Of a stretch of 57,156 nt of DNA, positions 8,061 to 55,620 are shown one piece after another (positions within the stretch are counted from its first letter, which is position 1; each line of letters begins with the position of its first letter). The DNA lies in the NCBI GenBank assembly GCA_002773095.1, contig PFCG01000022.1, positions 1 through 57,156 of the forward strand. The letters are read 5' to 3'. The position numbers and the translations under genes were made by a program. The DNA is from Candidatus Moranbacteria bacterium CG10_big_fil_rev_8_21_14_0_10_35_21 (GTDB lineage: Bacteria; Patescibacteriota; Minisyncoccia; Moranbacterales; UBA2206). The notes below the pieces were generated by a model. It searched no databases, was not told the DNA's origin, and saw nothing but the letters and a program-made list of their open reading frames with translations.

Positions 8061-8285
8061 TTAATTTTTTGTCACTATTTGGTTAGAATTATTTATTCCC
8101 TTTAACTTTTTCTTCATCTCCTTCAAAAACTTCTTAATTATTTCTATATCTTTTTCAGTATAAAAACGCCATCCTCTGGAGTCTTTTTGAGGATGTAAAA
8201 TAAGCCCAGCGCGTTCCCAGCGTAGGATAGTGTTTCGATCTCTATCTATGAGATTCTCTACATCTTTAACTCGGATATATGTCAT
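8061..8285 (-). CDS. stand-alone MerR/excisionase-type HTH protein (74 aa), copy 2
   Basis: YIRVKDVENLIDRDRNTILRWERAGLI.HPQKDSRGWRFY fits the MerR-type HTH plus wing. There is no effector domain. Close paralogue of 14458..14667. Confidence 0.7.
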   Translation of the reverse strand: MTYIRVKDVENLIDRDRNTILRWERAGLILHPQKDSRGWRFYTEKDIEIIKKFLKEMKKKLKGINNSNQIVTKN

Positions 8286-8323
8286 AAACTTTTATTAAAC
8301 TCAAACCTTAATTCATAATTCGT

Positions 8324-11300
8324 CTACCTCCTTACCCACCCAAATATATCTTGGAAATTATTGATTATCATTTGCACTACATTTTCTTTTCTTCTCGGAG
8401 TTAACAAAGCATACTCGGTAGAAGTGCCTTCGTTACCGGATTTATCAATAGATTTAGCTTTGAAATAATAAACAGTGCCAGGTTTGAAAATAGTCACTAC
8501 CGCAATATGGCTCGGAGCAAAGTCTTCACTGATTTTAACTTCTTTTTCTTGTCCGGATTTACCTTCTTTGTAGATTAAAGCTGTCGTAGCCGGTTCATCA
8601 GTGGTCCAAGAAATAATAGTTTGTACTCTATCGCCTTGAGCTAAAGCCGAGTCAGTTCTAATCTGATCTATCTTAGGAGCATTTTCATCTTTTCCGGTAG
8701 TAAAGTTGGGACCATCTTGTTCAGTTTCATTCCCCTCTTCATCTCGGGCTTTAATCTTAGTAGAGAAAGTGGTGCCAGCTATTAGGTTTTTCAATTCTAC
8801 TTCATGAGTAGAAGTTAATGTTGGGACTCCTTGAAAACCAGAACCTTTACCTTCAGATAAATCAGTGTAGGAAATGAGAGCGTCAGTCGGCACGTTGGTA
8901 GTAAATTTAACTACCACTGAGTTTTCAGTCACATCCGTAATCTCAGTTCCCGAAATAGCTGGAGGTGATTTGGGCTCGAAAGTATAATCTCCGGAAGAAT
9001 ACAAATTATTAGTTGCATCCTTACCTTTGACTCGGAAATGATAAATTTGAGAAGAAATTAAACTGGTTAAAGTCACTTCGTGAACTTTAGTGAGAGTGGT
9101 GGATTCTTTAGTTTCTCCATAAGAAGTTGTTAATCCGTATTCCACAGTGGAAGTGGTATCTTTAGAAGTACTCCAGGTAATGACAGCTTGATTCAGTGAA
9201 GTAGAAACTACTTTAATGGAAGATAAAGTGGACGGTTCGCTGGTGGTGAAGTTGCCTTGAGCAGATTCGGCGATGTTGCCGGCGGCGTCCGTTGAAATAA
9301 TTGTGTAATAATATTTGGAAGCCGGGATTAAACCATTAATGATTACTGAATGATCAGTTACATAATTAGCTGAATCTGAATTAACTTCATAATTTCCAGC
9401 GATATTATCGTAAGTTCCATCTACTAACCCATAGGCTACTAAACTATTAGCCTCTTCGTCGGTTGTCCATGTTGCTGTGACTGATTCTCCGGTAATTGTC
9501 CCAATATTAATTCCACTGATAGATGGAGCGGTTGCATCAGCTGTATCTCCCCATCCGCTACTAGTTAAAAGTTCAGCTGAAGTAATAAATGAATATTCCG
9601 AAGACATAACCGTATTATCCAAATTATCCACACAAGTAATGCGATAATAATAAGTAGTGGAAAATATCAACCCAGTAACGTGGATGGAATGATTAGAATT
9701 ATATAAAGTTTCCGCAATTGGAACTTCGGTATAAGATCCAGAAGCAGTACCATATTCAATGGTACACTTGGCGTTTTGATCCGTATTAAAAGTAACCACG
9801 GCCTTAGTATCAGTAATCACTGAAGGTGGATCGGCAATATTCGTAATGGCACTCAACGCATCATGTTGTTCTCCTGGAACTCTCAATGTAGTAAAATTAT
9901 ATTCTACAGAAATAGTTGAGTTAGTATTGATATCAACGGAAGTAACGGTGTAATAATATTTAGTGTTGGCGGTGAGACCAGTGAGAATAACATAATGACT
10001 TTTGTCATAAGTGGCCACTGTTCCTGTGCTACCCAAAACTCCAGAAACAGTTCCGTAGGATACTTTGCTGTTAGCATTTTCATCGGTGGTCCAATTAATA
10101 GCCGCGGAAGTGTTGTTAATAATAGCGACATTAGGATTGGAAATAACTGGAGCCACCACATCCGAAGTCGTTACAAAGGAATAAAAGTTTCCAGCATTAT
10201 TATCTGTAGCCACATTAGACGAAGCATCCGTTGATTGGACATAGAAATAATAGGTAGTTCCACTCACCAATGGACTGCCTTCAAAACTGTTAACTATTTG
10301 AGTATGCACATATGGATAACTGCCTCCCACTAAACCTCCCGATACTGCCGGTATTGTTTCAGCACCAACCAATGCTCCACTAGACAAAGTATCAGAATAA
10401 ATTACTTGAGTATCGGAATCTACCGTGGTTAGCCAACTGATAGTTACTTGATTATTACTAACTTGAGGAGCGGTTACATTGGAAATAGCCGGACCATCCA
10501 GAGTAGTAAACGTATAATTGGCAATTGGAGAAGATCCTGGACTATCTTTGTCATTAGTTGCTTCATTACCGCTCGCATCCTGTGATTTTACTTGAATATT
10601 ATAGATCGTATTGGGTAGTATTCCAGTGACAATAACGGAGTGACTAGTTACCATAGAAGCATTTCCGGTTGTGGGTAAATATGTCGCATCGGTAGAATAA
10701 CCCACACTAGAACTGGACAATTCATTGGTCGTCCACGTTACCGTGGCCGAGGTGGTACCGATACCAGATATCGCTACACTCGAAATAGTTGGCGCGGTAG
10801 AATCACTAGACCCAGCTCCATCGGGAATATCATCCACAGTATCAGAATAAGCTGAAAGATTGCCTGCGGAGTCTTGAACATTTATTTTGTAATAATAATG
10901 AGTAGCAGCCGTAAGCCCACTATCAATAACATAATTAACTGTTCGATCGGTTGAGGTTTGCGCCTTCAACCAAATGGCATCACCAGTAGAATGGGAAGCC
11001 GCCACAGTATTATTTACTCCTCTGGTTATAGTTCCTCCCAGATCATTAGTTGACTTTGAAGTATAAGTTATTTGTTCATCGCCGATAATAATTGTTCCGG
11101 AAGTTGGCAAAAGTGAACCATTTGTGACTGTGATGGCTGTTGTGTCAGAGTTAGTTAGTTCCTCATTAAGAGTTAGCGATGATCCGGCAGAGCGCCAGAG
11201 GTTATAGCTAGTAAATCCAGCTCCGACTTCTGAACCAGAAATAGTATTCCAAGCAATAAATTCACGATAAATACTATTACCAGAATCGGAAGTATCATAA

Positions 11301-14300
11301 TACACCGGATTAGCTGGCTTAGCTGGAGTAATAGTCGCTGAAGAATCAGCAGTGTTTCCATAAGCATCTTTAATTCGTAAATAAACTGTCGCCGGATCAG
11401 AAGTCATTGAACTATAAGTATATGGAGAACTAAAAGATACGAAAGTAGAAAAACTAAGAGTATTGGAAACCGACATGGTGTAACTAGAATCATCAGATGG
11501 AGTAGCTAAGGTTAATAAATTAGTTGTATGATCAATAGCTGTTATAGAAACTCCGGTTGGATTAGCTGTGTCTAAAGCAAAACTGGAAGAAGTTCCATAA
11601 CCCAAATTATTAGCTCCTTCAGCATCATTGGCTTTTATCCTCACTTTCAAAGCTCCGTTATGTTGTGCGTCATAATCAGTTTTAGGAGTCCAAGTTATAG
11701 ATCTCAAAGTTCCAGGAATATAGGCATTAGTAATCGCAATCCCCGCTCCGACATCCCCAGAAACTGTCACCGCGTCGGCCCAAGTGGGGCTACCTCCACA
11801 ATCAGCTGTACAATATTGCAAAGTAACCGCCGCCACATCTGAAGTCGTATCGGAATCTCGCATATCATAAGTGACAGTCACCAAACCATCCGATCCTTGA
11901 GAAGCGGAAACGGTCTGCACTTCCGGCGCAGCATTCACCACATAAATAGTTGTGACATCAGCAATCGTTGGGGCATTAGTTCCATTGGAAGTTAAAGTTA
12001 TTTTATATTGAAACCAATTATCTCCACTCTGATCTTTCATGCCAGCCGGCATAGCATCGCTAGTACAAGTAACTGTAGTTGAAACTTTAGAACAATTAGA
12101 AGTATCCTTAGTAAAATCACTCCAACCTCCCCAAGCAGCACCATCGGAACCAGTCCTTAAGGATATAGTGGCACTAGTTCCAGCTGGAAGAGTTGAGTCC
12201 TCATTCCAACTCAATCCTCCCATAATATTAGCAGCGTCTGTGGTGTTATAGGGAGATGAAGTTAAGACTTGTGTGGTCGGATAATAAGAAGAGTTAATTG
12301 TCACATCATCCAATGAAGGAGTGACACTAGTATCATCCGTTGAAAGCGTAGCCCTATATTGAGCATAGCGATCTCCATCGGTCGTACAACTTCCAGTAGA
12401 AAGGTCAGCTCCATTAGTAATATCTGAACAAACTGAATCCCATGCCTTGGAAACAGTTTCTCCAGAACAAGCCGCATCATCACAAGTTCGTGCTTGAATA
12501 GTAATTGTTTTTCCTAATGTATGTGTCCAAGAAATTAAATCCCAAGTATATGTATTTTTTCCGATATCCATAATATCAGAAGTATAAGTTCCGGGGGTAG
12601 AAAATACTGGGTTATAAAGATACACATCTTTATTGGTCTCGTCATATACATAGGCTATTCTGGGATAATTATCTTTTCCAACCCTTAATCGCATACCACT
12701 TCCAGTCCATGGGATATCCAGTTTAACTGTCGTCGGCCCTGAATAACTTGAACAAGTTGCATTATCGCAACTAACTATTTTCAAATCTGGAGCACCACTA
12801 ACATAATAGGAATACGCAATTACAGGAAATCCATTTGGTCCGATATCAATATCCACATCACCACGCCATTCTTGCGTTGTAAAAGCTACCGTAGAATTAC
12901 CACTAGAACAGGCTCCATTTCCGCACCTCAAAAAAGTAGCCTTGTCGTCTGTAGTATTTCTAAAAACAACATCCGCAATTCCGCCAGAATCAACTTGCAA
13001 AGCTATGGGTTGTTTTCCACCATTTGCAATATCATAGTCTGAATAACCAATAATATTTGAGCTGTTGCCCGCCGAACAAGCAGCGTCTCCACATTGGATA
13101 AAATTAGCAGTAAAATCTGTAGCAGCGCCCGACATATAAGCTATTCTAGGTACGTCGTCTGTTCCTAAATCTAAATCTGAATCAACTTTTCCATAACCAA
13201 CCCCATCACTAGCCACTGGATTTGTTACGAAGGAAGAACAATTAGTTGTCGTGCATTGAGCAAGACTTAATACTGCGCTAACTGAATAAATCATTACCGG
13301 ATTAGAACTAGAATCTACAGTCATATCTATAGCACTACCCCCACTATTCAAAATTGTTACGGGAGAGGAGGGATTAATAGAACTACAAGCGGCATTAGCA
13401 CACTGTGCAAATTTTAATTTGTTATCACTGCTATCTCTATAAAATATTTGCGCAAAATCGTTACTGTTAAGAACAAAAACGCCACTACCAAAGTTGAATC
13501 CAGAACTTGCCAAATTAGTAGTAACTTTTGAAGAACAAGATCCATTTAAACATTGCACAAAATATTTTACAGTGTTATCAGTATATAAAATGCGCGAATA
13601 ACCATCAGATCCAATTTGGGCATCATATACATCGGTACCGGTAGCATCCACTGCACTACTTACGGAACTAGAAGAACTTAATTGGATAGAAGCACTGTCT
13701 CCAGTGTTATCTACATGGGTAGAAGAATAACTAGCACTCGCTGAATTAAAACTAGTATTGTCATCCGTGCTACTGTCAGTTTGCACAATAGAACCAGTCG
13801 AAATTCCCAGTGTGACACTATTATATGGATCCGATCCTCCAGTTAGAGATACTCCGGAATCCTTGGACACATAATCAGTAAATCCAGTTTGATCGCTTCC
13901 ATGTGTCGCACCGGCTCCCGCTAGAGTTCCATCCCATTGGGTTTGCACAAAAGTAAATGTCGCTCCCGAAGAATATTGTGAATTTTGAATATAAGTAGAG
14001 GCCAGAGTAACCACAATGACTGTTAAATATACAAATCTTCTCGCCCAAGTGTTTCTAAATATTTTCCTAATTTTACCAAAAACATTTTGCCAATTAAATA
14101 TATTTTTAATTTGAAAGTTAGTTTTAGCTTCTCTTTTTCTGTGTCTTGATAAAAAGTTTATTTTGTCTATTCTTCTGTTAGGTAAAAACTGTAATTTATT
14201 TATTTTAGCTTTTTTATTTATTTTTACCTTTTGGATAAGATAAATAACCATACCCGATATTATTCGTAAAACTATTTTTATTATTCTCATTAATCCCACA

Positions 14301-14452
14301 AAAATAGTTTTAAACAAACCAACAATCTGCTTAACCGAAATATTCACTCCTCGTTTTTTTCTTCCAGAAGCAAAGGAAACTGTCCTCCGAGATATTCCAT
14401 CTAGGTTTCTATGAGTGACTATTAAGTTTTTCTTTTTTATTGAGAAAAACAT
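8324..14452 (-). CDS. giant membrane-anchored surface protein (about 2040 aa): basic N-tail, one TM, Cys-repeat propeller-like region, beta-sandwich modules, eight FN3-like modules
   Basis: ORF 8324..14470 opens with GTG. The first ATG is at 14452, 5 nt after the stop of the upstream HTH gene. The first 145 aa are Lys/Arg-rich, followed by the hydrophobic span FVYLTVIVVTLASTYI and a Ser/Thr/Asn-rich body. Two repeat systems are listed separately below. Confidence 0.85.
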   Translation of the reverse strand: MFFSIKKKNLIVTHRNLDGISRRTVSFASGRKKRGVNISVKQIVGLFKTIFVGLMRIIKIVLRIISGMVIYLIQKVKINKKAKINKLQFLPNRRIDKINFLSRHRKREAKTNFQIKNIFNWQNVFGKIRKIFRNTWARRFVYLTVIVVTLASTYIQNSQYSSGATFTFVQTQWDGTLAGAGATHGSDQTGFTDYVSKDSGVSLTGGSDPYNSVTLGISTGSIVQTDSSTDDNTSFNSASASYSSTHVDNTGDSASIQLSSSSSVSSAVDATGTDVYDAQIGSDGYSRILYTDNTVKYFVQCLNGSCSSKVTTNLASSGFNFGSGVFVLNSNDFAQIFYRDSSDNKLKFAQCANAACSSINPSSPVTILNSGGSAIDMTVDSSSNPVMIYSVSAVLSLAQCTTTNCSSFVTNPVASDGVGYGKVDSDLDLGTDDVPRIAYMSGAATDFTANFIQCGDAACSAGNSSNIIGYSDYDIANGGKQPIALQVDSGGIADVVFRNTTDDKATFLRCGNGACSSGNSTVAFTTQEWRGDVDIDIGPNGFPVIAYSYYVSGAPDLKIVSCDNATCSSYSGPTTVKLDIPWTGSGMRLRVGKDNYPRIAYVYDETNKDVYLYNPVFSTPGTYTSDIMDIGKNTYTWDLISWTHTLGKTITIQARTCDDAACSGETVSKAWDSVCSDITNGADLSTGSCTTDGDRYAQYRATLSTDDTSVTPSLDDVTINSSYYPTTQVLTSSPYNTTDAANIMGGLSWNEDSTLPAGTSATISLRTGSDGAAWGGWSDFTKDTSNCSKVSTTVTCTSDAMPAGMKDQSGDNWFQYKITLTSNGTNAPTIADVTTIYVVNAAPEVQTVSASQGSDGLVTVTYDMRDSDTTSDVAAVTLQYCTADCGGSPTWADAVTVSGDVGAGIAITNAYIPGTLRSITWTPKTDYDAQHNGALKVRIKANDAEGANNLGYGTSSSFALDTANPTGVSITAIDHTTNLLTLATPSDDSSYTMSVSNTLSFSTFVSFSSPYTYSSMTSDPATVYLRIKDAYGNTADSSATITPAKPANPVYYDTSDSGNSIYREFIAWNTISGSEVGAGFTSYNLWRSAGSSLTLNEELTNSDTTAITVTNGSLLPTSGTIIIGDEQITYTSKSTNDLGGTITRGVNNTVAASHSTGDAIWLKAQTSTDRTVNYVIDSGLTAATHYYYKINVQDSAGNLSAYSDTVDDIPDGAGSSDSTAPTISSVAISGIGTTSATVTWTTNELSSSSVGYSTDATYLPTTGNASMVTSHSVIVTGILPNTIYNIQVKSQDASGNEATNDKDSPGSSPIANYTFTTLDGPAISNVTAPQVSNNQVTISWLTTVDSDTQVIYSDTLSSGALVGAETIPAVSGGLVGGSYPYVHTQIVNSFEGSPLVSGTTYYFYVQSTDASSNVATDNNAGNFYSFVTTSDVVAPVISNPNVAIINNTSAAINWTTDENANSKVSYGTVSGVLGSTGTVATYDKSHYVILTGLTANTKYYYTVTSVDINTNSTISVEYNFTTLRVPGEQHDALSAITNIADPPSVITDTKAVVTFNTDQNAKCTIEYGTASGSYTEVPIAETLYNSNHSIHVTGLIFSTTYYYRITCVDNLDNTVMSSEYSFITSAELLTSSGWGDTADATAPSISGINIGTITGESVTATWTTDEEANSLVAYGLVDGTYDNIAGNYEVNSDSANYVTDHSVIINGLIPASKYYYTIISTDAAGNIAESAQGNFTTSEPSTLSSIKVVSTSLNQAVITWSTSKDTTSTVEYGLTTSYGETKESTTLTKVHEVTLTSLISSQIYHFRVKGKDATNNLYSSGDYTFEPKSPPAISGTEITDVTENSVVVKFTTNVPTDALISYTDLSEGKGSGFQGVPTLTSTHEVELKNLIAGTTFSTKIKARDEEGNETEQDGPNFTTGKDENAPKIDQIRTDSALAQGDRVQTIISWTTDEPATTALIYKEGKSGQEKEVKISEDFAPSHIAVVTIFKPGTVYYFKAKSIDKSGNEGTSTEYALLTPRRKENVVQMIINNFQDIFGWVRR
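8408..10798 (-). other. eight tandem FN3 / purple-acid-phosphatase-N-like modules (coordinates approximate)
   Basis: Recurrent ..VTWTT/..ISWTT.. start and YY..V.S.D..GN end, e.g. IYNIQVKSQDASGN, YYFYVQSTDASSN, YYYTVTSVDINTN, YYYTIISTDAAGN and VYYFKAKSIDKSGN. Confidence 0.65.
12611..13648 (-). other. six ~50-aa repeats each carrying C-x4-C (coordinates approximate)
   Basis: Motifs FVQCLNGSCSS, FAQCANAACSS, LAQCTTTNCSS, FIQCGDAACSAG, FLRCGNGACSS and IVSCDNATCSS at aa 307, 357, 406, 460, 516 and 568. Each follows a hydrophobic strand (e.g. PRIAY, PVIAY). The periodicity suggests a 6-bladed propeller. Confidence 0.5.
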
Positions 14453-14457
14453 ATACT

Positions 14458-14667
14458 TTAATTTTTGCACCGGAAAGCCGGCAGATTACTTCTCATCTCC
14501 TTCATAAATTTCTTGATTATTTCAATATCTTTTTCGTTATAAAAACGCCATCCTCTGGAGTCTTTTTGAGGATGTGGAATAAGCCCAGCGCGTTCCCAGC
14601 GTAGGATGGTATTTCTGTCACGGTCTATAAGCTTCTCTACATCTTTAACTCTTATGTATTCCATCAT
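14458..14667 (-). CDS. stand-alone MerR/excisionase-type HTH protein (69 aa), copy 1
   Basis: MMEYIRVKDVEKLIDRDRNTILRWERAGLIPHPQKDSRGWRFYNEKDIEIIKKF. Nearly identical to copy 2 over the HTH. ACGGGG-AAAAAA-ATG gives an SD-like GGGG 6 nt upstream. Confidence 0.7.
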   Translation of the reverse strand: MMEYIRVKDVEKLIDRDRNTILRWERAGLIPHPQKDSRGWRFYNEKDIEIIKKFMKEMRSNLPAFRCKN

Positions 14668-14995
14668 TTTTTTCCCCGTTAGAAATTCCAGGATTAATTA
14701 GATAATTTTTTAGCCTATTTTTTATGTAGCGCTTCCCCATTCCAGATTTAAGATACTTTTCTCTTGCTTTTGCGTCATCTATGTTTAAACCTGCTTCGCT
14801 ATAAATTATTTGAAATGGCCCTCTATTTTTGGTAGAAAGACTTTTTCCCTGATTATGTTGTGAAAGTCTTTTTTTTAAATTTTGCGTATAGCCCGTATAC
14901 CAACATTTATCCTTCTCACTTCTTAAAACATAAACATACCACCACTGGTGAATTTCTAACGGGGTTTCGACGTCTTTGATACGGATATATGTCAT
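14645..14995 (-). CDS. GIY-YIG nuclease (COG2827/UPF0213 type) fused behind 11 MerR-like codons
   Basis: WYVYVLRSEKDKCWYTGYTQNLKKRLSQHNQGKSLSTKNRGPFQIIYSE...AKAREKYLKSGMGKRYIKNRL matches the small GIY-YIG family. The N-terminal MTYIRIKDVE copies the MerR-like gene start. Confidence 0.8.
   Translation of the reverse strand: MTYIRIKDVETPLEIHQWWYVYVLRSEKDKCWYTGYTQNLKKRLSQHNQGKSLSTKNRGPFQIIYSEAGLNIDDAKAREKYLKSGMGKRYIKNRLKNYLINPGISNGEKNDGIHKS
14674..14964 (-). mobile_element. GIY-YIG cassette bounded by a perfect 15-nt inverted repeat
   Basis: CCCCGTTAGAAATTC at 14674..14688 and GAATTTCTAACGGGG at 14950..14964 are exact reverse complements. They enclose only the GIY-YIG domain coding sequence. 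Confidence 0.6.
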
Positions 14996-15105
14996 CTACT
15001 TTTACTTTTTGTATTTATTTTATTTTCAATATTTTTTTCGTGTTATATGCTATATGTTTCATGTTTTATTAATAGCTTTATTATATCCTATTTTAAATAT
15101 ATTTG

Positions 15106-21754: not shown

Positions 21755-21799
21755 CTATTCTACAGTTACACTTTTGGCCAAGTTTCTTGGCTTATCAAC
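21755..21799 (-). pseudogene. orphan second copy of the last 14 codons plus stop of glmS
   Basis: The reverse strand reads GTTGATAAGCCAAGAAACTTGGCCAAAAGTGTAACTGTAGAATAG = VDKPRNLAKSVTVE*. The peptide is identical to the real glmS C-terminus, and all differences are synonymous. Confidence 0.7.
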
Positions 21800-21838
21800 C
21801 CCGTAAAGTCGCAGAGCGACCACGGGGCACGCATCTAA

Positions 21839-23671
21839 TTATTCAACTGTAACACTTTTGGCTAGATTACGCGGTTTATCGACATCCAGTTTTTTGAGAA
21901 CTGCGATGTGATAGGCAAATAATTGCAAAGGAATGACGCTTAACAACGGCGTAAGCATTTCAAGTGTTTTGGGAATATAAATCACATCATCCGCGTGTTT
22001 TTTGATCTCTTTGTCGCCAACAGTTGCAATCGCGATAATTTTCCCGCCTCGCGCTTTAATTTCCTGCATACCGGATATATTTTTTTCATACACACTGTCT
22101 TTGGGAACAATAAAAATTGAAGGGAAATCTTTGTCGATAAGCGCAATCGGTCCGTGCTTCATTTCTCCTGATGGATAACCTTCAGCATGAACATAAGCTA
22201 TTTCTTTAATTTTCAAAGCGCCTTCCAAGGCAATCGGAAAATTATATTTTCTTCCCATATAGAGAAAGTCTTTATATTGAATATATTTTTTAGCTATTCT
22301 TTTTATTTCTACAGATTTTTTGATAATTTTCTCAATTAACTTGGGAATTTTTGCCATTTCCGATGCAATTCTTTTTCCCATCACAAAAGTCATATCTCTT
22401 TGCCTTCCCACCAATAAAGTTAAAAGAAGCAAAATAGAAACTTGTGAAGTAAAGGCCTTAGTAGACGCCACCCCAATTTCCGGTCCAGCATGGTTATATA
22501 TTCCAGCATCTGTTTCTCGCGCGATAGTAGAGCCAACGGTATTCACAATTCCCAAAGTCAGCGCCCCTTTATTTTTCGCTTCACGAATAGCTGCCAAAGT
22601 GTCTGCTGTTTCACCTGACTGAGAAATAGCCAGAACGGCGGTTCTTTCATTGAGTAAAGGTTTTCGATAACGAAATTCAGAAGCATATTCCACCTCCACT
22701 GGAATACCAGCATATTCCTCCAAAAAATATTCTCCCACCAATCCTGAATAATACGATGTCCCGCAACTCACAATCACTATTTTTTCCAAATGTCGTAGTT
22801 TTTCCGCCACATCTCTGAGCCCTCCGAGCTTCGCCATTCCATCAGCAACCACCAATCTTCCACTGATGGCAATTTGAATAGTTTCTGGTTGTTCAAAAAT
22901 TTCTTTCATCATAAAATGAGGGAACCCTGATTTTCGTGCTTGTTCCATTGACCAATCCAGCTTGGAAATTTTTTTGCTGATTTTTTTATTTTTAATATTA
23001 TTGACTTCATAATTATCTAGCGAAAGTTCCGCTACTTCTCCATCTTCCAGATAAATTACTTGATCAGTATGGCGAATGATGGCCGAAGCATCAGACGCAA
23101 TGACAAATTCTTTTTCTCCTACTCCCAGAAGTAATGGACTGCCAAGTCGAGCTACAATTATTTTTTCCGGCTCGTCTTGATTAATAATGGCTAATCCATA
23201 AGTTCCGCGAATTTTTTTAAGCGCTTCTAAAACTGCCTCCTTAAAATCTAACTTTTTATTAAATTCCTCAATAAGATGGACAATGATTTCACTGTCCGTT
23301 TCCGATTTAAATTTATGTCCATTTTTTAGAAGATAACTTTTCAGTTCCAAATAATTTTCAATAATGCCATTGTGCACTAAATGAATTTTTCCAGAGCAAT
23401 CACAGTGCGGATGAGAATTTTGGTCTGATGGTTTTCCGTGTGTGGCCCAGCGTGTGTGAGCAATACCAATGGTTCCCAAAATTTCTTTACTATCACTCAA
23501 CTTATTTTCCAGTTCCGCTACTTTTCCCACGGACTTTAAATTAATAATTTTTTTTCCATCAATAATAGAAACTCCGGCACTGTCATAGCCCCTGTATTCA
23601 AGCCTTTTTAATCCTTCAATTAAAATTGGAACGGCTTTTTGTTTTCCAATATAACCTATTATTCCACACAT
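21839..23671 (-). CDS. glmS: glutamine--fructose-6-phosphate aminotransferase
   Basis: MCGIIGY N-terminal nucleophile, two SIS domains and the canonical C-terminus ...DKPRNLAKSVTVE. Confidence 0.95.
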   Translation of the reverse strand: MCGIIGYIGKQKAVPILIEGLKRLEYRGYDSAGVSIIDGKKIINLKSVGKVAELENKLSDSKEILGTIGIAHTRWATHGKPSDQNSHPHCDCSGKIHLVHNGIIENYLELKSYLLKNGHKFKSETDSEIIVHLIEEFNKKLDFKEAVLEALKKIRGTYGLAIINQDEPEKIIVARLGSPLLLGVGEKEFVIASDASAIIRHTDQVIYLEDGEVAELSLDNYEVNNIKNKKISKKISKLDWSMEQARKSGFPHFMMKEIFEQPETIQIAISGRLVVADGMAKLGGLRDVAEKLRHLEKIVIVSCGTSYYSGLVGEYFLEEYAGIPVEVEYASEFRYRKPLLNERTAVLAISQSGETADTLAAIREAKNKGALTLGIVNTVGSTIARETDAGIYNHAGPEIGVASTKAFTSQVSILLLLTLLVGRQRDMTFVMGKRIASEMAKIPKLIEKIIKKSVEIKRIAKKYIQYKDFLYMGRKYNFPIALEGALKIKEIAYVHAEGYPSGEMKHGPIALIDKDFPSIFIVPKDSVYEKNISGMQEIKARGGKIIAIATVGDKEIKKHADDVIYIPKTLEMLTPLLSVIPLQLFAYHIAVLKKLDVDKPRNLAKSVTVE

Positions 23672-25941: not shown

Positions 25942-28413
25942 TTAAATTACAATACTTATTAACTTTCCTTTGACAAAAATAATTTTCTTAATTTTCTTTC
26001 CGGAAATTTGAGATTTTATTTTCTCACTTTCCACTGCCAATTTTTTGGCATCTTCTTCAGTGATATCTGCGCTTACTCTTAATTTATCTCGCACCTTGCC
26101 ATTTATTTGAATAACTAACTCGATTTCTTCATCCTGAATCAGTTTTTCATCATATTTAGGCCAGGCTTCTAAAAATATAGATTTAGTGTGTCCTAGCTTT
26201 TTCCAAATTTCTTCAGCGATGTGCGGAGCAAAAGGAGATAATAGTATTAAATATTTTTCATATTGTATTTTGGATATTGATTCTTGTTTATCTAATTCGT
26301 TAGCGAAAATCATCATTTGGCTAATGGCCGTATTAAAGCGTAAGCTCTCAATATCATTTGTAATTTTTTTAATCGTTTTGTGAAATAAGCTTTCTAACTT
26401 TTTATTGGTGATATTTTTGTCCGTTATTTTTCCGGCGTTTTTATAAACTTTTTCCAAAAACCTCACGATACCCACAATCCCTTTTGTATTCCACGGTTTC
26501 ATATCCTCCAATGGCCCCATAAACATTTCAAACATTCTTAAGGAATCTGCACCAAATTTTTCCACCACTTCATCTGGATTCACCACATTGCCCTTGGATT
26601 TGGCCATCTTGTTTCCGTCTTCAGCTAAAATTATTCCCTGGTGACGTAGTTTCAAAAAAGGTTCATCAAATTTAATATGACCAAGCTTGTGTAAAACTTT
26701 GGTAAAAAATCGCGCATAGAGCAGATGCAAAACCGTATGTTCCGCTCCTCCAACATACAAATCTACCGGCAGCCATTTCTTAATTTGCTCTTTGCCGGCA
26801 AAAGCCTTTTTATTTCTTGAATCGGAATAGCGGAAATAATACCAAGAGGAGCAAACAAATGTGTCCATCGTGTCAGATTCTCTTTTTGCCTCACCTCCGC
26901 ACTTCGGACATTTCACATTATGAAAACTTTTGGATTTTTTAAGTGGTGACTCTCCAGTTGGATTGAAATCAACATCCGTCGGCAACATCACCGGCAAATC
27001 TTCTTCCGGAACAGGAATTTCTCCTTGCCTCGCCGGATCAAGGTGGGCGCATTTTTCGCAATAAATAATCGGAATGGGCGCGCCCCAATATCTTTGACGA
27101 CTTACCAACCAGTCACGCAGTTTGTAATTTATTTTTTGGCTACCCAATTTATTTTCAGTCAGCCATTTCGTCATTTCTGCACGTGCTTTTTCAGAAATCA
27201 TCTTTGTAAATTTTCCAGAATCAAATAGCACACCGTCAGCAGTAAATATTTTATCTACCTTTTTTTCTCCTTCTATTACTTCCTTTATTGGCAACTTATA
27301 TTTCTGCGCAAATTCCCAGTCGCGTTCATCATGCGCTGGAACAGCCATTACTGCGCCAGTGCCGTATTGCGCCAAGACATAATCCGCGACAAACAAAGAC
27401 ACTTCTTCATTGGTAAAGGGATTAATAACTTTTATGCCTTTAATTTCTACGCCAGTCTTCTCTTTAGCTTCCATCCGCATCAAGTCAGATTTTTTCTTGG
27501 ATTTCTCAAGATATTTTTCCACTTCTTTCAGATTTAAAATTTGCTCCGCTAACTGTTGGACTATTTTGTGTTCGGGAGCAACAACGCAATACGTACACCC
27601 AAAGATAGTATCTACACGCGTAGTGAATACCTCTATAAAGTTTTTATCATTATTTAATTGGGATTTGTTTAGAAATTTGGAATTAGAAATTAGAAATTTT
27701 ATCGTTGTCCCTTCGCTACGCCCAATCCAATTTCTTTGCGTTTGTTTGGTAGATTCCGGCCAATCCAATTTTTCCAATCCAGAAAGTAATCCTTGAGTTT
27801 TTCCCTTGTCCTCAATAAAATCCGTGATTTTAAAAAACCATTGCTCTAAATCTTTTTGAATCACTTTATTGCCACATCTTTCACACACTCCATTTTCGGA
27901 TTGTTCGTTCGCCAAAACCGTTTGGCACGATTCGCACCAATTCACTTTAGCTTTGGCCTTATAAGCTAATTTATTTTTATATAACTGCAGAAAAAACCAT
28001 TGCGTCCATTTGTAGTATTCTGGATCTGAAGAATTCACTTCTCGCGACCAATCATAGGAAAATCCCAATTTGCCCATTTGAGCTTTGAAAGTAGCAATGG
28101 CTTTTTTGGTTGTTTCAGTCGGATGAATTTTGGTTTTAATAGCATAATTTTCCGCCGGCAAACCGAAAGCGTCCCAACCTTGCGGATGCAAAACATTTTT
28201 TCCTTGCAAGCGATAATAACGCGACATAATATCCGTGGCCGTGTATGATTCCACATGCCCGACATGGAGACCCTCTCCTGAAGGATAAGGAAACATATCC
28301 AAAATATATTTCTTTTCTTTTTTTGAATCATCGTTCACCGCAAAAAGTTCCGGATGTTCGATCCAATACTTTTGCCATTTGGCTTCAATTTCTTTCGGAT
28401 TATATTTTTCCAT
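25942..28413 (-). CDS. leuS: leucyl-tRNA synthetase
   Basis: HVGH (PYPSGEGLHVGHV) and KMAKS motifs and the CP1 editing domain. The ORF opens with GTG at 28419 and the ATG is at 28413. Confidence 0.95.
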   Translation of the reverse strand: MEKYNPKEIEAKWQKYWIEHPELFAVNDDSKKEKKYILDMFPYPSGEGLHVGHVESYTATDIMSRYYRLQGKNVLHPQGWDAFGLPAENYAIKTKIHPTETTKKAIATFKAQMGKLGFSYDWSREVNSSDPEYYKWTQWFFLQLYKNKLAYKAKAKVNWCESCQTVLANEQSENGVCERCGNKVIQKDLEQWFFKITDFIEDKGKTQGLLSGLEKLDWPESTKQTQRNWIGRSEGTTIKFLISNSKFLNKSQLNNDKNFIEVFTTRVDTIFGCTYCVVAPEHKIVQQLAEQILNLKEVEKYLEKSKKKSDLMRMEAKEKTGVEIKGIKVINPFTNEEVSLFVADYVLAQYGTGAVMAVPAHDERDWEFAQKYKLPIKEVIEGEKKVDKIFTADGVLFDSGKFTKMISEKARAEMTKWLTENKLGSQKINYKLRDWLVSRQRYWGAPIPIIYCEKCAHLDPARQGEIPVPEEDLPVMLPTDVDFNPTGESPLKKSKSFHNVKCPKCGGEAKRESDTMDTFVCSSWYYFRYSDSRNKKAFAGKEQIKKWLPVDLYVGGAEHTVLHLLYARFFTKVLHKLGHIKFDEPFLKLRHQGIILAEDGNKMAKSKGNVVNPDEVVEKFGADSLRMFEMFMGPLEDMKPWNTKGIVGIVRFLEKVYKNAGKITDKNITNKKLESLFHKTIKKITNDIESLRFNTAISQMMIFANELDKQESISKIQYEKYLILLSPFAPHIAEEIWKKLGHTKSIFLEAWPKYDEKLIQDEEIELVIQINGKVRDKLRVSADITEEDAKKLAVESEKIKSQISGKKIKKIIFVKGKLISIVI
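27656..27700. repeat. AT-rich (T)CTAAAT-type repeat segment in frame in leuS
   Basis: AATTGGGATTTGTTTAGAAATTTGGAATTAGAAATTAGAAATTTT encodes ISNSKFLNKSQLNN just before the conserved FTTRVDT block. It shares words with the 28964..29090 spacer. Confidence 0.45.
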
Positions 28414-28507
28414 ATACACCCAATTTTACCTTATTCCAGGTTTTTTTTCAAAAAATTAAAAATCTCAAGAATTGAAACCCTTACCCACATAATGGAAAAA
28501 TGTGCTT

Positions 28508-31799: not shown

Positions 31800-32180
31800 T
31801 CAAATATTCAATTGCTTATTTTCTGTTTTTTTGATAATTGCCAACAAAATATTCTTTAACTCCATTCCTTCTTGTTTTAATTCTTGTATTCTGGATTTAA
31901 ATTCCGGATTATCTTCTTCAATCAACTCCAGCCAATGCAGTGTTTCTTTTGCTTCTTTTCTGGAAATTTTCATCCGATGTATAAAATCTTTTTTTCCTAA
32001 CGCATCATTAGCTTCTCTATAATTTGCTCCTACTGAACCGGCAGAACCTGCCGTTTGCCCCGTTAATCTATTGTTTATCGAATCTTTCGGCAATGATTTG
32101 CATAATCTTATTACTCTTTTTGCAAATTCAGCAGTTCTTTCTTCTAAATCAAATTTATTTTTGTTTTGAGTATTGGTCAT
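31800..32180 (-). CDS. four-helix-bundle protein (23S rRNA intervening-sequence protein family)
   Basis: FDLEERTAEFAKRVIRLCKSLPK...GQTAGSAGSVGANYREA...KDFIHRMKISRKEAKETLHWLELI matches that family. Confidence 0.8.
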   Translation of the reverse strand: MTNTQNKNKFDLEERTAEFAKRVIRLCKSLPKDSINNRLTGQTAGSAGSVGANYREANDALGKKDFIHRMKISRKEAKETLHWLELIEEDNPEFKSRIQELKQEGMELKNILLAIIKKTENKQLNI

Positions 32181-32208: not shown

Positions 32209-33798
32209 TTATTGGTGATTGGTATAAACTTCTTTGAATTCTTTAATACTCTTTTCCAATGCCTTCACTACTTCTTCCGTCAATTCTTTCTTTTCTATGA
32301 TTAATTTCAAAGTTTCTTTGCCACTTCCTTTCAGATATTTGTGAAAATCATTCTCCCATTTTTGGATTTCTTCCACGGCCACATCATCCACAAATCCGTT
32401 GGTCAGGGCATAGAGAATCACTACTTGATTTTCCACTGCCATCGGTTCGTATTGCCCTTGCTTCAAAATTTCCACCGTTCTTTTTCCTCTTTCAATTTGA
32501 CGCCTAGTATTTTCATCCAAGTCAGAACCAAATTGTGCAAAGGCTTCCAATTCTCGAAACTGTGCCAAATCCAAACGGAGTTTTCCAGCCACTTTTTTCA
32601 TAGCTTTGATTTGCGCGGCGGAACCCACTCGAGAAACGGAAAGTCCTGCATTAATAGCCGGGCGAATGCCTTTATAGAATAAATCAGATTCCAAATAAAT
32701 TTGTCCGTCAGTAATAGAAATAACATTGGTTGGAATATAGGCTGAAACATCTCCAGCTTGGGTTTCAATGATTGGCAAAGCAGTGAGCGATCCTCCACCA
32801 AAATCTTTATTAAGCTTTGCTGAACGTTCCAAAAGTCGGGAATGCAAATAGAAAATATCTCCAGGATAAGCTTCGCGTCCCGGTGGTCGACGCAAAATTA
32901 ATGACACTTGCCGATACGCCCAAGCATGTTTAGATAAATCATCATAAATTACCAGCACGTCTTTGCCTTGGTCCATAAAGTATTCTCCCAGTGAACAGCC
33001 TGAATAGGGCGCAATATAGGAAAAAGCAGCTGGATCAGACGCTCCTGCAATCACAACAGTCGTATATTCCATAGCTCCCTTTTTTTCCAATTCAGCCACA
33101 ATACGTGCAATTTTAGATTCTTTCTGACCAATAGCCACATAAATACAAATCATGCCTGCCCCGTGATCGCCGTTAGGCGATTTTACGGGGTTCTGCCCAT
33201 TCTTCTTCAATTTATCCCATTCATATTTCTGATTTATTATGGCATCCACTGCAATGGCAGTTTTTCCAGTTTGTCGGTCACCAATAATCAATTCTCTTTG
33301 ACCGCGACCAATTGGAATCATCGCATCAATCGCCTTAATACCAGTTTGCACTGGCTGATTCACTGATTGACGAGTAATAACCCCTGGAGCAATTTTTTCA
33401 ATCGGATAAAATTTTTCTGAGCTTATTTCTCCCTTTCCGTCCACCGCTTGCCCCAATGGATTGACCACTCTTCCAATCATATTTTCTCCAACTGGAATAG
33501 ACAGAATTTTGCCGGTAGATTTCACGGTGTCGCCTTCCTTGATTCCTTCAAAACTGCCCAAAATCATCGCGCCTACTTGACCTTCTTCTAGGTTCAAAAT
33601 TACACCAAAAATTCCGCCCGGGAATTCAATCATTTCTGAAGCCATCACGTCGGATAGTCCAGAAATTTTGGCCACGCCGTCTCCGACTTCAATAACCGTT
33701 CCGACTTTTTCCGTCGTCGCAGTGGTTTCAAAACCCTCAATTTGTTTTTTTAGTTGTTCGATGATGTAGTCTTTGCTTGCCCCGTTAATTTTTTCCAT
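32209..33798 (-). CDS. atpA: ATP synthase F1 alpha subunit
   Basis: Walker [18 protein letters not shown] and the C-terminal helical domain. Confidence 0.95.
33159..33190. repeat. 32-nt hairpin in frame in atpA
   Basis: CCCCGTGATCGCC-GTTA-GGCGATTTTACGGGG encodes [11 protein letters not shown] between the INQK and CIYVAIGQK blocks. Confidence 0.6.
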
Positions 33799-36783: not shown

Positions 36784-37731
36784 TTATAAATTAAAAAGTT
36801 TTTTCGCATTTTGAGTGGTAACTTCTACCACCTTTTCTGCTGAAATTTGCTTTATTTCAGCTATTTTTTGCGCCACCAGCTCAACCAAAATTGGTTCATT
36901 TCTCTCTCCTTTTTTTGGCACTGGAGCCAAATATGGGCAATCTGTTTCCACAAGAATGTCTTGAAGGTCAATTTCTTTGATGAGCCGATCATAGCTGATT
37001 CCGAAGGTGATAATGCCATTTAGTCCAATTTTATATCCCATTTCAATGAATTTATGGGCCGTTTTCCATGAACCAATAAAACTATGCACCACACCCAATT
37101 TTTTCACTGGATTGTTTTTTAAAATTTCCAGCAAGTCGTCATAGGCATCCGTTCGGGCGTGGTCGAGTTCTTTGCTAACTTTTACGCCCTTTAGGGCGTG
37201 GTTTCGTTCTTGACGAGACTTTACGCCCCAGCAATGAATCATTATTGGTTTTTCTACTTCGTTGGACAACTTTATAAATTTTATCAAAACTTCTTTCTGT
37301 TTCTTTTTTAATTCTTCTTCGTTATCCCCTTCGCTAAAGTGATGATAATCCAAACCCACTTCTCCAATGGCGACCACTTTCGGATTTTTGGCCAGTTCTA
37401 AATATTTTTCATAGTCAAAAATTTCTCCATCCGTTTTTATTTCCACTTCTTCCAATTCATCGTCATCTTTATATTTCATGCTCGCTTTTTGCAAATGCAC
37501 CGGATGAATTCCGATTGCTGCCCAAACACCTTTTTCATATTTTTCCGCAAATTCCACCGCACGTTTGCTAGTGGAATATTGAGAACCAACATTAATCATA
37601 AAAGCGCCGCTGGCAAGCGACTTTTTTATAACGTCATCAGCATCGTCCTTGAACGCGCTGAAATTCACATGGGCGTGAGTGTCGATGTACACAAGGTTAC
37701 TTCTTAAAAATATTAAAAAATATTTTAGCAA
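36784..37731 (-). CDS. tatD: TatD-family metal-dependent hydrolase (with tandem in-frame hairpin inserts)
   Basis: YIDTHAHVNF, AIGEVGLDY, PIMIHC, VHSF and ETDCPYLAP. Possible GTG start at 37692, which would avoid overlap with the upstream gene. Confidence 0.85.
   Translation of the reverse strand: MLKYFLIFLRSNLVYIDTHAHVNFSAFKDDADDVIKKSLASGAFMINVGSQYSTSKRAVEFAEKYEKGVWAAIGIHPVHLQKASMKYKDDDELEEVEIKTDGEIFDYEKYLELAKNPKVVAIGEVGLDYHHFSEGDNEEELKKKQKEVLIKFIKLSNEVEKPIMIHCWGVKSRQERNHALKGVKVSKELDHARTDAYDDLLEILKNNPVKKLGVVHSFIGSWKTAHKFIEMGYKIGLNGIITFGISYDRLIKEIDLQDILVETDCPYLAPVPKKGERNEPILVELVAQKIAEIKQISAEKVVEVTTQNAKKLFNL
37155..37229. repeat. two tandem ~35-nt hairpins in frame in tatD
   Basis: GGGCGTGGTCGAGTTCTTTGCTAACTTTTACGCCC (37155..37189) and GGGCGTGGTTTCGTTCTTGACGAGACTTTACGCCCC (37194..37229). 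Both have termini GGGCGTGGT...ACTTTACGCCC. Confidence 0.6.
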
Positions 37732-38445: not shown

Positions 38446-38481
38446 TTCTTCCTTATATCCATATAACCTTATAAGGAAGAA
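38446..38481. repeat. 36-bp inverted-repeat arm (left) flanking the TrpR/YerC-like gene
   Basis: TTCTTCCTTATATCCATATAACCTTATAAGGAAGAA. It is itself a 12-bp stem with a 12-nt loop, and is the exact reverse complement of 38933..38968. Confidence 0.85.
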
Positions 38482-38495
38482 ATTATATTAACTAA

Positions 38496-38900
38496 CTAGT
38501 TTAGTAAATCTTTTAAAATTCTATGTCCGGGATATTTATCCAGCATAGTATATTCTCTATACTTTTTGGCATCTTTTTCTTTTAATCCATTCTTTATCCG
38601 TCCACTTATCCAATAATAATACTCATCACCTCTTTCTTTTAGCCAATGATCAGTTTTCGCTATTGTTTGAAAACTGACCTTTAATTTTTTTCTTATCGTT
38701 TCCGCTGTTTCTTCATCAATAATCATTTTTGCAACCTGAATTCTTCTGCCCATCATTAAGGCTTCACTAGGCGTTAACATACCCATAAAAAAATCTATTA
38801 TTTCTTTTTTTGACTTGAGTTCCGCAATAACATTCAAAAGGCAACCAATTGACTGGTATTTTTCCTTTTCATCAATTTCATAAACTTTAATTTTTGCCAT
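38496..38900 (-). CDS. TrpR-related YerC/YecD-like DNA-binding protein
   Basis: FFMGMLTPSEALMMGRRIQVAKMII...TIRKKLKVSFQTIAKT resembles the YerC/TrpR HTH layout. Confidence 0.55.
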   Translation of the reverse strand: MAKIKVYEIDEKEKYQSIGCLLNVIAELKSKKEIIDFFMGMLTPSEALMMGRRIQVAKMIIDEETAETIRKKLKVSFQTIAKTDHWLKERGDEYYYWISGRIKNGLKEKDAKKYREYTMLDKYPGHRILKDLLN

Positions 38901-38932
38901 CTTTTTGTTTTATCTGCTTAAATATATTTTTT

Positions 38933-38968
38933 TTCTTCCTTATAAGGTTATATGGATATAAGGAAGAA
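38933..38968. repeat. 36-bp inverted-repeat arm (right)
   Basis: TTCTTCCTTATAAGGTTATATGGATATAAGGAAGAA is the perfect reverse complement of the left arm. Confidence 0.85.
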
Positions 38969-55500: not shown

Positions 55501-55586
55501 AATATTTTTTCCTCATCCCAAAATTTCAGAATCCCTTCTTCCATTTGGGGAAATTTCATTTTTGGGTCTATTTGTTTGAATGCCAT
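52563..55586 (-). CDS. ileS: isoleucyl-tRNA synthetase
   Basis: PPTANGQPGLHH (HIGH), KMSKSKGN (KMSKS), the CP1 editing domain and a zinc-knuckle region. The ATG is at 55586. Confidence 0.95.
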   Translation of the reverse strand: MAFKQIDPKMKFPQMEEGILKFWDEEKIFEKSVEKNSSDKSFVFYEGPPTANGQPGLHHVLARAFKDIIPRYKTMKGYRVERKAGWDTHGLPVELQVEKEMGLKNKQEIENIVPGNPRESIIEFNKKCKESVWKYKDQWEKLTERMGYWVDMKNPYITYKNKYIESVWWVVAQIFKTKNKKGESLIYKGHKVVPYCYRCGTTLSSHEVAQGYQMVKDNSIYVKFKAKPNPEKGIDDNTYFLAWTTTPWTLPGNVALAVNKEIEYVKIKCHPELVSGSQEMLKQVQHDSCYILAKNRLSVVEGEYKIAGGFLGKNLLNLEYEPLYNSENKENKKVHYVVSGDFVSTSEGTGIVHIAPAFGEDDANVGRENNLPTLLTVDETGKIISGFNIPGEGLPVKKKNERNKYAADELIIEDLKERGLLLKEELYEHEYPFCWRCDTPLIYYAKPSWFIQMSELSSDLGKNNENINWIPEYIKEGRFGEWLLGVKDWAISRERYWGTPLPIWECAKCGELKVIESISEMEKMSGQKLEDLHKPYIDDVKFKCVCGEEMKRVPEVLDVWFDSGSMPLAQFSYPNQASKEDKKKIESGNFFPADYISEAIDQTRGWFYTLHAIATLLNKAGKVPAGYAYKNVICLNLILDSKGKKMSKSKGNIVDPMEVMDKYGADMLRWMLFTINQPGMTKKFDIKGMNEIMNRVFRMLWNSYSFFVLYANIDQWETKGIWKSENLLDKWIISELNILIKNVDEKLESYDVYGAAGIIEKFVDNLSNWYIRRSRKRFWKSEDDGDKESAYQTLHMSLMELSKLMAPFTPFISEEIYKNLTGEESVHLVDFPVADEKLIDEKLNENMGALREIITLGLQDRAKNKIKVRQPLKRVILGKKYESVFDELINKPEWSNIIIEELNVKGAEIGSETETVAIDIEITPELKLEGQAREIIRFIQTMRKEADYVVDDHISVGYVGGKEIFEKFNDLIAKEVLANEIKETLENFDLEKEFDVDGEKLKIQVKK
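54726..54781. repeat. 56-nt hairpin (family A variant) in frame in ileS
   Basis: GTCATGCTGAACTTGTTTCAGCATCTC-TT-GAGATCCCGAAACAAGTTCGGGATGAC. Encodes HPELVSGSQEMLKQVQHD. Confidence 0.7.
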
Positions 55587-55620
55587 ATAAATCAATTATA
55601 TTACTAAAACGCTTTATAAA

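Follow-up and report, generated by a model that had tools for sequence, protein, structure and literature searches.

Phages, integrative and conjugative elements (ICEs) and islands enter the 3' ends of tRNA, tmRNA or protein genes, the attachment site of the incoming DNA (attP) carrying a replacement 3' end. Palindromic DNA has also been found inside genes: Ogata and colleagues reportedly described in 2000 the Rickettsia palindromic elements (RPEs), which are in-frame palindromic repeats in protein genes. To our knowledge, no repetitive extragenic palindrome (REP) or PATE carries a replacement gene end, and literature searches agree with this. In this study we describe an arrangement that touches on all of these systems, located at the 3' end of glmS, the gene for glutamine--fructose-6-phosphate aminotransferase, on contig PFCG01000022.1 of Candidatus Moranbacteria bacterium CG10_big_fil_rev_8_21_14_0_10_35_21, the analysed stretch of which (57,156 nucleotides) is referred to below as the window. 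It is best viewed as a compact and recurrent mini-insertion, REP/IS200-like and self-patching, that combines two known themes. The same gene end is used by Tn7, which inserts about 20-25 bp after the glmS stop codon without duplicating coding sequence, and which is characterised by a 5-bp target duplication, TnsABCD genes and TnsB-binding ends (PMC2918618).

In the window the glmS 3' end is present twice (Table 1). The last 14 codons of the intact gene with their stop (copy X) read GTCGATAAACCGCGTAATCTAGCCAAAAGTGTTACAGTTGAATAA, and a second, untranslated copy found downstream of the glmS stop codon (copy B, the orphan) reads GTTGATAAGCCAAGAAACTTGGCCAAAAGTGTAACTGTAGAATAG; both encode the same peptide, VDKPRNLAKSVTVE*, with 9 of the 14 codons differing, all of them synonymously, with different stops (TAA vs TAG) and with 12 differences overall. 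An earlier note, made from the sequence alone, had reported such a doubled end with 14 identical codons, nine of them synonymously different, and a 39-nt hairpin spacer, and both the sequences and the translations of the two copies confirm it. A six-frame scan of the window found the peptide at two sites only, X and B, and among the 3,214 open reading frame (ORF) ends of all fetched loci glmS was the sole gene with a duplicated end, so that a chance origin of the second copy can be excluded. The junction is base-for-base identical in eight independent assemblies of the window species (ENA, Logan, JGI and NCBI) and is therefore not an assembly artefact. What the downstream copy begins with is not the Val codon: directly after the glmS stop comes a short echo of the preceding codons, then a hairpin between Asp and Val and finally the 14 codons; the second copy is in other words a glmS end of ~16-18 codons split by a hairpin at Asp|Val.

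Table 1. Positions in the window of glmS, the parts of its doubled 3' end and the dispersed copies of the hairpin
Feature	Position	Strand	Description
glmS	21839..23671	minus	glutamine--fructose-6-phosphate aminotransferase, 610 aa, intact; from ORF and translation
X, in-gene last 14 codons + TAA	21839..21883	minus	real end of the 610-aa glmS ORF
Spacer between X and B	21800..21838		39 nt
Echo TTAGATG	21832..21838	minus	vestige of the Leu-Asp-(Val) codons preceding the insertion point; abuts the stop; ends in conserved GATG
Linker CGTG	21828..21831	minus	directly 5' of the hairpin foot
Bulged hairpin, 29 nt, CCCCGTGGTCGC-TCT-GCGAC-TTT-ACGGGG	21799..21827	minus	from fold and alignment; one of a family of dispersed REP/IS200-like hairpins
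B, orphan last 14 codons + TAG	21755..21799	minus	untranslated, downstream of the glmS stop
Hairpin family copy	33159..33190	plus	inside atpA (ORF 32209-33798, minus), in a 21-aa in-frame insert
Two tandem hairpin family copies	37155-37189 and 37194-37228	plus	inside tatD (ORF 36784-37731, minus), read in frame

The explanation to which we assign a probability of about 0.58 is a miniature non-autonomous insertion inside the glmS 3' end that carries its own spare end, the orphan being the displaced original. The insertion point would lie at GATG|T, where the Asp codon meets the Val codon 14 codons ahead of the stop; there the insert would supply its own last 14 codons and the stop codon now terminating GlmS; the new stop would be followed by a short, decaying echo ending in GATG, a 4-nt linker and a hairpin of the REP/IS200 type, the 3' foot of which would abut the original last 14 codons of the gene, now an untranslated orphan. 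Because the insert brings its own 'patch', insertion into an indispensable and conserved site would be harmless. The unit may pass between relatives through recombination, homologous or homology-facilitated, that is anchored in glmS and takes place in naturally transformable cells (the window encodes DprA and RecO), and/or through a Y1 (HUH) transposase that is specific for the hairpin and makes its cuts 3' of GATG and at the foot of the hairpin. Homology-facilitated recombination in the course of natural transformation and a Y1 transposase acting on the single hairpin are likewise the candidates for the first insertion. The unit could be lost by recombination between X and B.

In its treatment of the target, the module resembles integrase-type elements (phages, ICEs and islands), in that the incoming DNA brings a new gene end, the target remains intact, the original end is orphaned downstream and the two ends differ where their sequence is free to vary. 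A displaced host end with the element's end in the gene is found in the clade of locus L093 and is probably also present in the window. Unlike these elements, the module has no integrase and no cargo, the whole insert comprising about 85-94 nt with the hairpin alone as its non-coding payload, and its loss would come about through recombination of X with B, not through excision driven by an excisionase. With Tn7 it shares the use of the invariant C-terminal coding sequence of glmS as an ever-present site at which the gene is left unharmed; unlike Tn7, it is located inside the ORF, 42 nt upstream of the stop codon, the gene end is duplicated, and the 5-bp duplication, the TnsABCD genes and the TnsB-binding ends of Tn7 are all absent. 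A Tn7-like transposon at attTn7, as suggested by the earlier note, was rejected given this junction at Asp|Val and the lack of a non-coding target duplication, and neither the window nor the ORFs that flank the module in L006-L008 yielded Pfam families of tnsA/B/C or tnsD/tniQ.

The module is not restricted to the window. Its order (glmS stop codon, echo, GATG, CNTG linker, bulged hairpin with a GC foot, perfect 14 codons) is common to at least 12 lineages of Patescibacteria, the module-bearing loci being the window, L006-L008, L086-L088, L090-L094 and L102, with an X-to-B spacing of 84 nt in the window and 84-94 nt elsewhere. When 85 glmS loci were scanned for the peptide in six frames, the same arrangement was found at +90 to +93 nt in three other species (L006, bacterium BMS3Abin15; L007; and L008, a Moranbacteria metagenome-assembled genome), the GlmS proteins of which are 76-80% identical to that of the window. 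A metagenome search with the pattern GATG-NNN-GCCCC...GGGG-TNGAYAARCC, in which just the first 10 nt of the orphan are fixed, matched nine contigs, eight of which were glmS ends with the full module, and in 8/8 of these the orphan was a perfect VDKPRNLAKSVTVE*; one further module (L102) was obtained among close homologues. The GlmS proteins of carriers are as low as 59% identical to one another. Of 21 Patescibacteria loci that had been sampled without bias, on the basis of protein similarity, 4 had the module, and the best downstream match to a degenerate 42-mer had 0-4 mismatches in carriers as opposed to 13-16, which is the background level, in the 17 module-less loci. Orphans are all-or-none, being either intact or absent, and no decayed remnant was detected in these 17 loci. 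All 12 lineages have an echo, 3-11 nt long plus GATG, that keeps a clade-typical residue (C, Y or L) and carries indels and wobble differences from the real copy, and the linker of the other lineages is CNTG or CTCG. No description of an equivalent feature was found in the searchable literature; one match, on glmS in viruses of nanohaloarchaea, had no bearing on it.

Determining which copy is the newcomer is possible in one clade, in which filled sites (L091, L093 and L094) may be compared with empty ones (L110, L111 and L114) in the shared context of DHH, glmS and POR genes; in L111, L112 and L114 the POR start codon lies 4-14 nt past the glmS stop. Over 45 nt, L110 and L111 have single ends that depart from B of L091 and L093 at 3-5 positions and from X at 11-15, and the flank following the stop codon in the empty-site relatives, A(A)TTATG, is collinear with the flank following B, and B is therefore the ancestral host end in this clade. 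The inserted unit consists of X, echo, linker and hairpin, has a length of 89-90 nt and is located at GATG|T; these sequences show that the new end with its echo and hairpin is the unit that is gained and lost. The echo reads GGA where the clade's native sequence and the real copy read GGT, and therefore arrived with the unit. In a tree based on four-fold degenerate sites, module-bearing L091 groups with module-less L110 and L113, which means that the unit has been gained and/or lost more than once. Compared with L091, the single end of L113 is X-like at the first four informative sites and B-like at seven of the last nine (about P = 0.02), and thus looks chimeric, the outcome expected of a loss by recombination of X with B. 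From -100 to +87, L093 and L094 are 100% identical, and this tract ends inside B; the background around it differs by 6-15%, L094 having a different B and two extra downstream genes; this points to a recent recombinational transfer or conversion of the unit between these strains.

These filled and empty sites support the claim of the earlier note that the copies come from long-separated glmS-end lineages and that the gene end was displaced by an incoming replacement end. By analogy with this clade, the orphan B of the window would be the original end and X the replacement. Of the means of choosing the native copy, comparison with relatives points to B in the L093 clade, whereas codon usage does not separate X from B (-15.8 vs -17.3) and distance clustering of orphans and real ends gives no signal, because the wobble sites are saturated.

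The hairpin of the window glmS folds as DNA at -11.6 kcal/mol (z = -3.3). Compensatory changes are found at 8 of its 14 pairs across nine lineages, the sequence varying and the stem being kept, and in the alignment the CCCC/GGGG foot, GATG and the 4-nt linker are invariant or nearly so, with bulges on the 3' arm. Hairpin, linker and GATG are far better conserved than adjacent wobble sites: L006 and L007 are identical at 34/34 positions, at a four-fold-site divergence of 0.61. The earlier note had placed the hairpin in a 'CGTAAAGT...ACCACG family', and further copies were indeed located, making four in the 57-kb window, three of which lie inside ORFs. Some homologues with 82-86% identity share the 21-aa insert that contains the atpA copy, and a 95%-identical AtpA, the common 502-aa form and most homologues lack it. 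The two copies in tatD, which encodes a TatD DNase, fall between the IHC... and ...DAYDD motifs, and the Pfam match of this protein covers 299 residues vs a 253-position profile, i.e., it is ~46 residues longer. The 5' flank of the hairpin is GATG, CATG or CATC in three window copies and CCAG in L008; the hairpin type of L008 occurs a second time in that locus, at a distance of 7.7 kb. In L015 four copies of another hairpin type are found within 21 kb, one of which (11897-11933) stands directly after glmS in the opposite orientation, among CATACAAACATCTAAACAT-type tandem repeats and with no orphan. Other CCCCGT...CGGGG palindromes, again with no orphan copy, were observed in L103-L107 in the first ~75 nt after the glmS stop. 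No target-site duplication was found at the module besides the coding end itself, and the element has no Rfam match. An intrinsic terminator was rejected, since a terminator scan saw no T-run after the hairpin, as was an integron attC site, since R''/R' boxes are lacking and the hairpin is too short.

Like REP/RAYT, IS200/IS605 and PATE palindromes, this hairpin is short, GC-rich and imperfect, with extrahelical bases, a conserved lower stem and an upper stem that varies compensatorily; like REP and IS200 elements, it occurs in dispersed copies, makes no target-site duplication, seems to have a conserved 4-nt motif 5' of its foot and is accompanied in related genomes by RAYT-like and IS200-like Y1 transposases (L006, L093 and L113). 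It is unlike REPs, which are extragenic by definition, in that the copies in atpA and tatD are intragenic, so that of the properties of REPs several imperfect GC-rich palindromic copies are found and an extragenic location is not. It is also unlike IS200/IS605 elements, which have two subterminal hairpins, in having one. The atpA and tatD copies are comparable to RPEs, being translated in frame inside conserved enzymes and patchy among relatives, and the atpA insert resembles the palindromic elements inside Rickettsia protein genes; unlike RPEs, which measure 100-150 bp, the glmS hairpin is untranslated and tolerated through the spare gene end.

The transposases differ in how closely their ends match the module. 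An IS200-type TnpA in L093 (11783-12253) has end hairpins of a like layout, with CATG or CAAG followed by a CCCC...GGGG foot. Two RAYT-like Y1 transposases have hairpins unlike that of the module: one in L006 (14306-15001), between direct TTCCGAAGGTTGAGCCTTCGGAA hairpins, and one in L113 (4405-5142), 66 nt downstream of the glmS stop and between inverted CAGAGACCCGATCTCTG hairpins. Between the glmS stop and the POR start of L110 (4340-4460) there is an element of ~105 nt similar to MITEs (transposable elements of miniature size with inverted repeats), with the terminal inverted repeats CCCGGTAGTGAAAAT / ATTTCTACTACCGGG. Small mobile DNA has a hot spot in the short spacer that follows glmS. A stronger version of the proposed insertion, in which a Y1/HUH transposase (RAYT or IS200-type) actively moves the 85-95-nt unit as single-stranded DNA in the manner of a 'self-patching' mini-transposon, can be put forward only tentatively, at about one chance in four. 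The target would then be the same conserved Asp|Val site in the glmS of other chromosomes, and the intact orphan would make excision harmless. Such a transposon, if it exists, would be the REP/IS200 counterpart of the attTn7 safe-harbour strategy of Tn7, placed inside an essential gene and bringing the 14 codons without which that gene would fail. It would also be a new system for site-specific insertion of DNA, very small and with its own gene-repair cassette built in.

An untranslated orphan might be expected to decay, yet this one still looks coding. When X and B of one genome are compared, 9-16 of 42 sites differ, as in random pairs of glmS ends (about 11), with the exception of L090 (6/42), and the two copies are saturated at synonymous sites in 10 out of 11 genomes. 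Between genomes the orphans show synonymous differences only, which about match the wobble divergence of their hosts: the orphans of L091 and L093 differ at 4/42 positions at a four-fold divergence of 0.38 (P = 3e-5 vs neutral decay), and those of L092 and L008 at 7/42 at a four-fold divergence of 0.435 (P = 2e-4). This variation includes Ser switches between AGY and TCN as well as first-position changes in Arg and Leu codons, with all amino acids kept, and the constraint therefore operates at the amino-acid and not at the nucleotide level. Two orphans are partly decayed, that of L006 and that of L007 (E to K). It is most consistent with the polarity seen in the L093 clade that B was functional until insertion and that recombination with module-less alleles keeps it sharing ancestry with functional ends, and likewise that modules are lost, as in L113, faster than orphans decay, which fits the all-or-none pattern as well as the partial decay of two orphans. 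The conservation may be due to recency or gene flow. Constraint by an antisense ORF was rejected, as the Ser switches would alter antisense residues and the downstream genes differ between loci.

Several observations weigh against an insertion that brought its own gene end. An empty-site polymorphism was sought in the window species and none was found, the module being present in 8/8 assemblies. The polarity is shown in one clade only, the GlmS of which is ~61% identical to that of the window. The nearest module-less relative of the window, L003 (93% amino-acid identity, four-fold divergence 0.53), has an end slightly nearer to the window X than to B (5 vs 8 differences; informative sites 7 X-like to 4 B-like), which implies either an old insertion followed by loss of echo, hairpin and B in L003 or the opposite polarity in the window. 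Apparently orthologous orphans are free of non-synonymous change despite substantial divergence, and direct selection on the orphan could explain its conservation. There is a single hairpin here as opposed to two in IS200/IS605 elements, and no cognate transposase was identified. Nor does such an insertion account for how the echo arose.

Part of this evidence can be accommodated by an in-situ tandem duplication of the host's last ~18 glmS codons, followed by entry of a REP-like hairpin into the spare copy, the module then being kept as a 3'-UTR stabiliser, a terminator or a translation-damping REP near the stop codon. The echo abuts the stop exactly as a duplicated (K)GXD-VDKPRNLAKSVTVE* predicts and keeps its clade-typical residue, X and B of L090 differ at only 6/42 nt, the position of L003 nearer to X agrees with such an origin, and so does the strong conservation of hairpin, linker and GATG between L006 and L007 (34/34). 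A duplication would however begin with X and B identical, and synonymous saturation is nevertheless observed in 10/11 genomes; an unused copy of such an age should show non-synonymous changes and indels, which are confined to L006 and L007; the in-gene end of the L093 clade is the foreign one; and a terminator role is at odds with the missing T-run and the lack of an Rfam match. We consider this explanation unlikely, with odds of roughly one in seven.

Far less probable is the possibility, raised in the earlier note, that the ~84 nt are the scar of a large site-specific element, either an integrase island or a Tn7-like transposon, the interior of which has been deleted. The logic of the replacement end does hold in the L093 clade, attTn7 classically lies at the glmS end, near which a RAYT (L113) and a MITE (L110) are found, and among relatives with 91-93% identical GlmS the gene order changes exactly downstream of glmS. 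In at least 12 lineages, however, the larger insertions expected at this junction are absent, echo, linker and hairpin alone separating the copies, so that the compact unit is the whole element, and deletions that occurred independently would not each have left this hairpin at that codon boundary. Contigs bearing an integrase or Tns genes at this sequence, which the earlier note had recommended looking for, were likewise not encountered: no tyrosine or serine recombinase stands next to the module in 12 lineages, and no integrase, transposase or Tns gene was found among the scanned window ORFs of >=100 aa (a few short ORFs nested in longer genes were left out, and glmS with its three upstream neighbours was assessed through the precomputed Pfam annotation of the near-identical locus L004). 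A search of IMG/VR gave no viral contig with both hairpin and glmS end, the 72 viral glmS-end matches being whole or edge-cut glmS genes, one of them frameshifted, and a tblastn search of INPHARED phages returned full-length matches only.

Equally improbable is that the orphan functions by mimicking the glmS terminus as a nucleic acid, for example as a decoy or a second attachment site, being kept intact by binding selection and read by TnsD/TniQ-like selectors, integrases or homing nucleases. The orphan does cover the full 36-bp region read by TnsD and varies at wobble-type positions only, as TnsD tolerates (PMC2918618), and its conservation is well above the neutral expectation; the Ser switches and the first-position Arg and Leu changes with residues kept are, on the other hand, the mark of a protein-level history and not of a DNA contact map, no locus contains Tn7-like genes, and a decoy would protect at most partly and has no obvious beneficiary. 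Translational recoding, by which the orphan would be reached through read-through, frameshifting or hairpin bypass, is suggested by the window, where the spacing of 84 nt is in frame and stop-free and the hairpin begins 11 nt past the stop, but is next to negligible, as is translation of the orphan in place, which was rejected by the analysis of frames, stops and start codons: the X-to-B spacing is not a multiple of 3 in L090, L092, L093 and L094, most lineages have in-frame stops in echo or hairpin, no conserved start codon of a mini-ORF was found and either route would yield the same protein.

Two further classes of elements were tried and rejected. In the case of a diversity-generating retroelement, the 12 differences are not adenine-specific and the window has no reverse transcriptase; in that of a CRISPR, CRISPR-associated transposon (CAST) or TnpB guide, the identity of X and B is too low (9-16/42 differ), cas and tns genes are missing and there is no Rfam match.

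If the module is an insertion with its own spare end, it represents a third mode in which selfish or hitch-hiking DNA exploits the invariant glmS terminus, beside Tn7-type insertion and integrase-type end replacement, in which a non-autonomous element of <100 nt would render insertion among essential codons harmless by means of a 45-nt spare end. It also points to a REP-like hairpin family that lands in frame in the core enzymes AtpA and TatD. Since filled, empty and chimeric alleles are distinguishable, the module provides uncultivated Patescibacteria with a natural marker by which recombination and gene flow can be followed. The presence of two TnsD-type sites 84-94 nt apart calls for caution in annotation and in attTn7-based engineering.

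With regard to the surroundings of the module, homologues of the window GlmS contain GATase_6/7 and SIS domains, and the gene is preceded in the window by genes for an Nramp protein, an NTP-transferase and leucyl-tRNA synthetase and followed by those for a NUDIX protein, a radical SAM protein, a methyltransferase and an ABC/FtsX protein. In L004 (1266-3730) leucyl-tRNA synthetase is called as two ORFs (245 and 510 aa) vs one of 825 aa in the window (25942-28419), which could be due to an assembly error, a frameshift or an insertion.

Other repeats were observed elsewhere in the window. Perfect 37-nt inverted repeats (TTCTTCCTTATATCCATATAACCTTATAAGGAAGAAA) at 38446-38482 and 38932-38968 flank a 449-nt segment with a 134-aa ORF of the Trp-repressor family (38496-38900), which looks like an invertible or mobile cassette. 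Direct repeats of 180 nt, 86% identical (8114-8293 and 14493-14672), flank a 2048-aa fn3/purple-acid-phosphatase-N ORF (8324-14470); one of them overlaps a small GIY-YIG nuclease ORF (14645-14995), and a third copy of 38 nt is located at 14967-15004. Between atpG and atpA, within the ATP synthase operon, there is a 126-aa ORF (31800-32180) for a '23S rRNA intervening sequence protein' (PF05635). Finally, a palindrome with 31-nt arms (84% complementary, 2-nt loop) at 54722-54785, inside a 1010-aa class I aminoacyl-tRNA synthetase ORF (52563-55595), may be another palindromic insert in a core gene.

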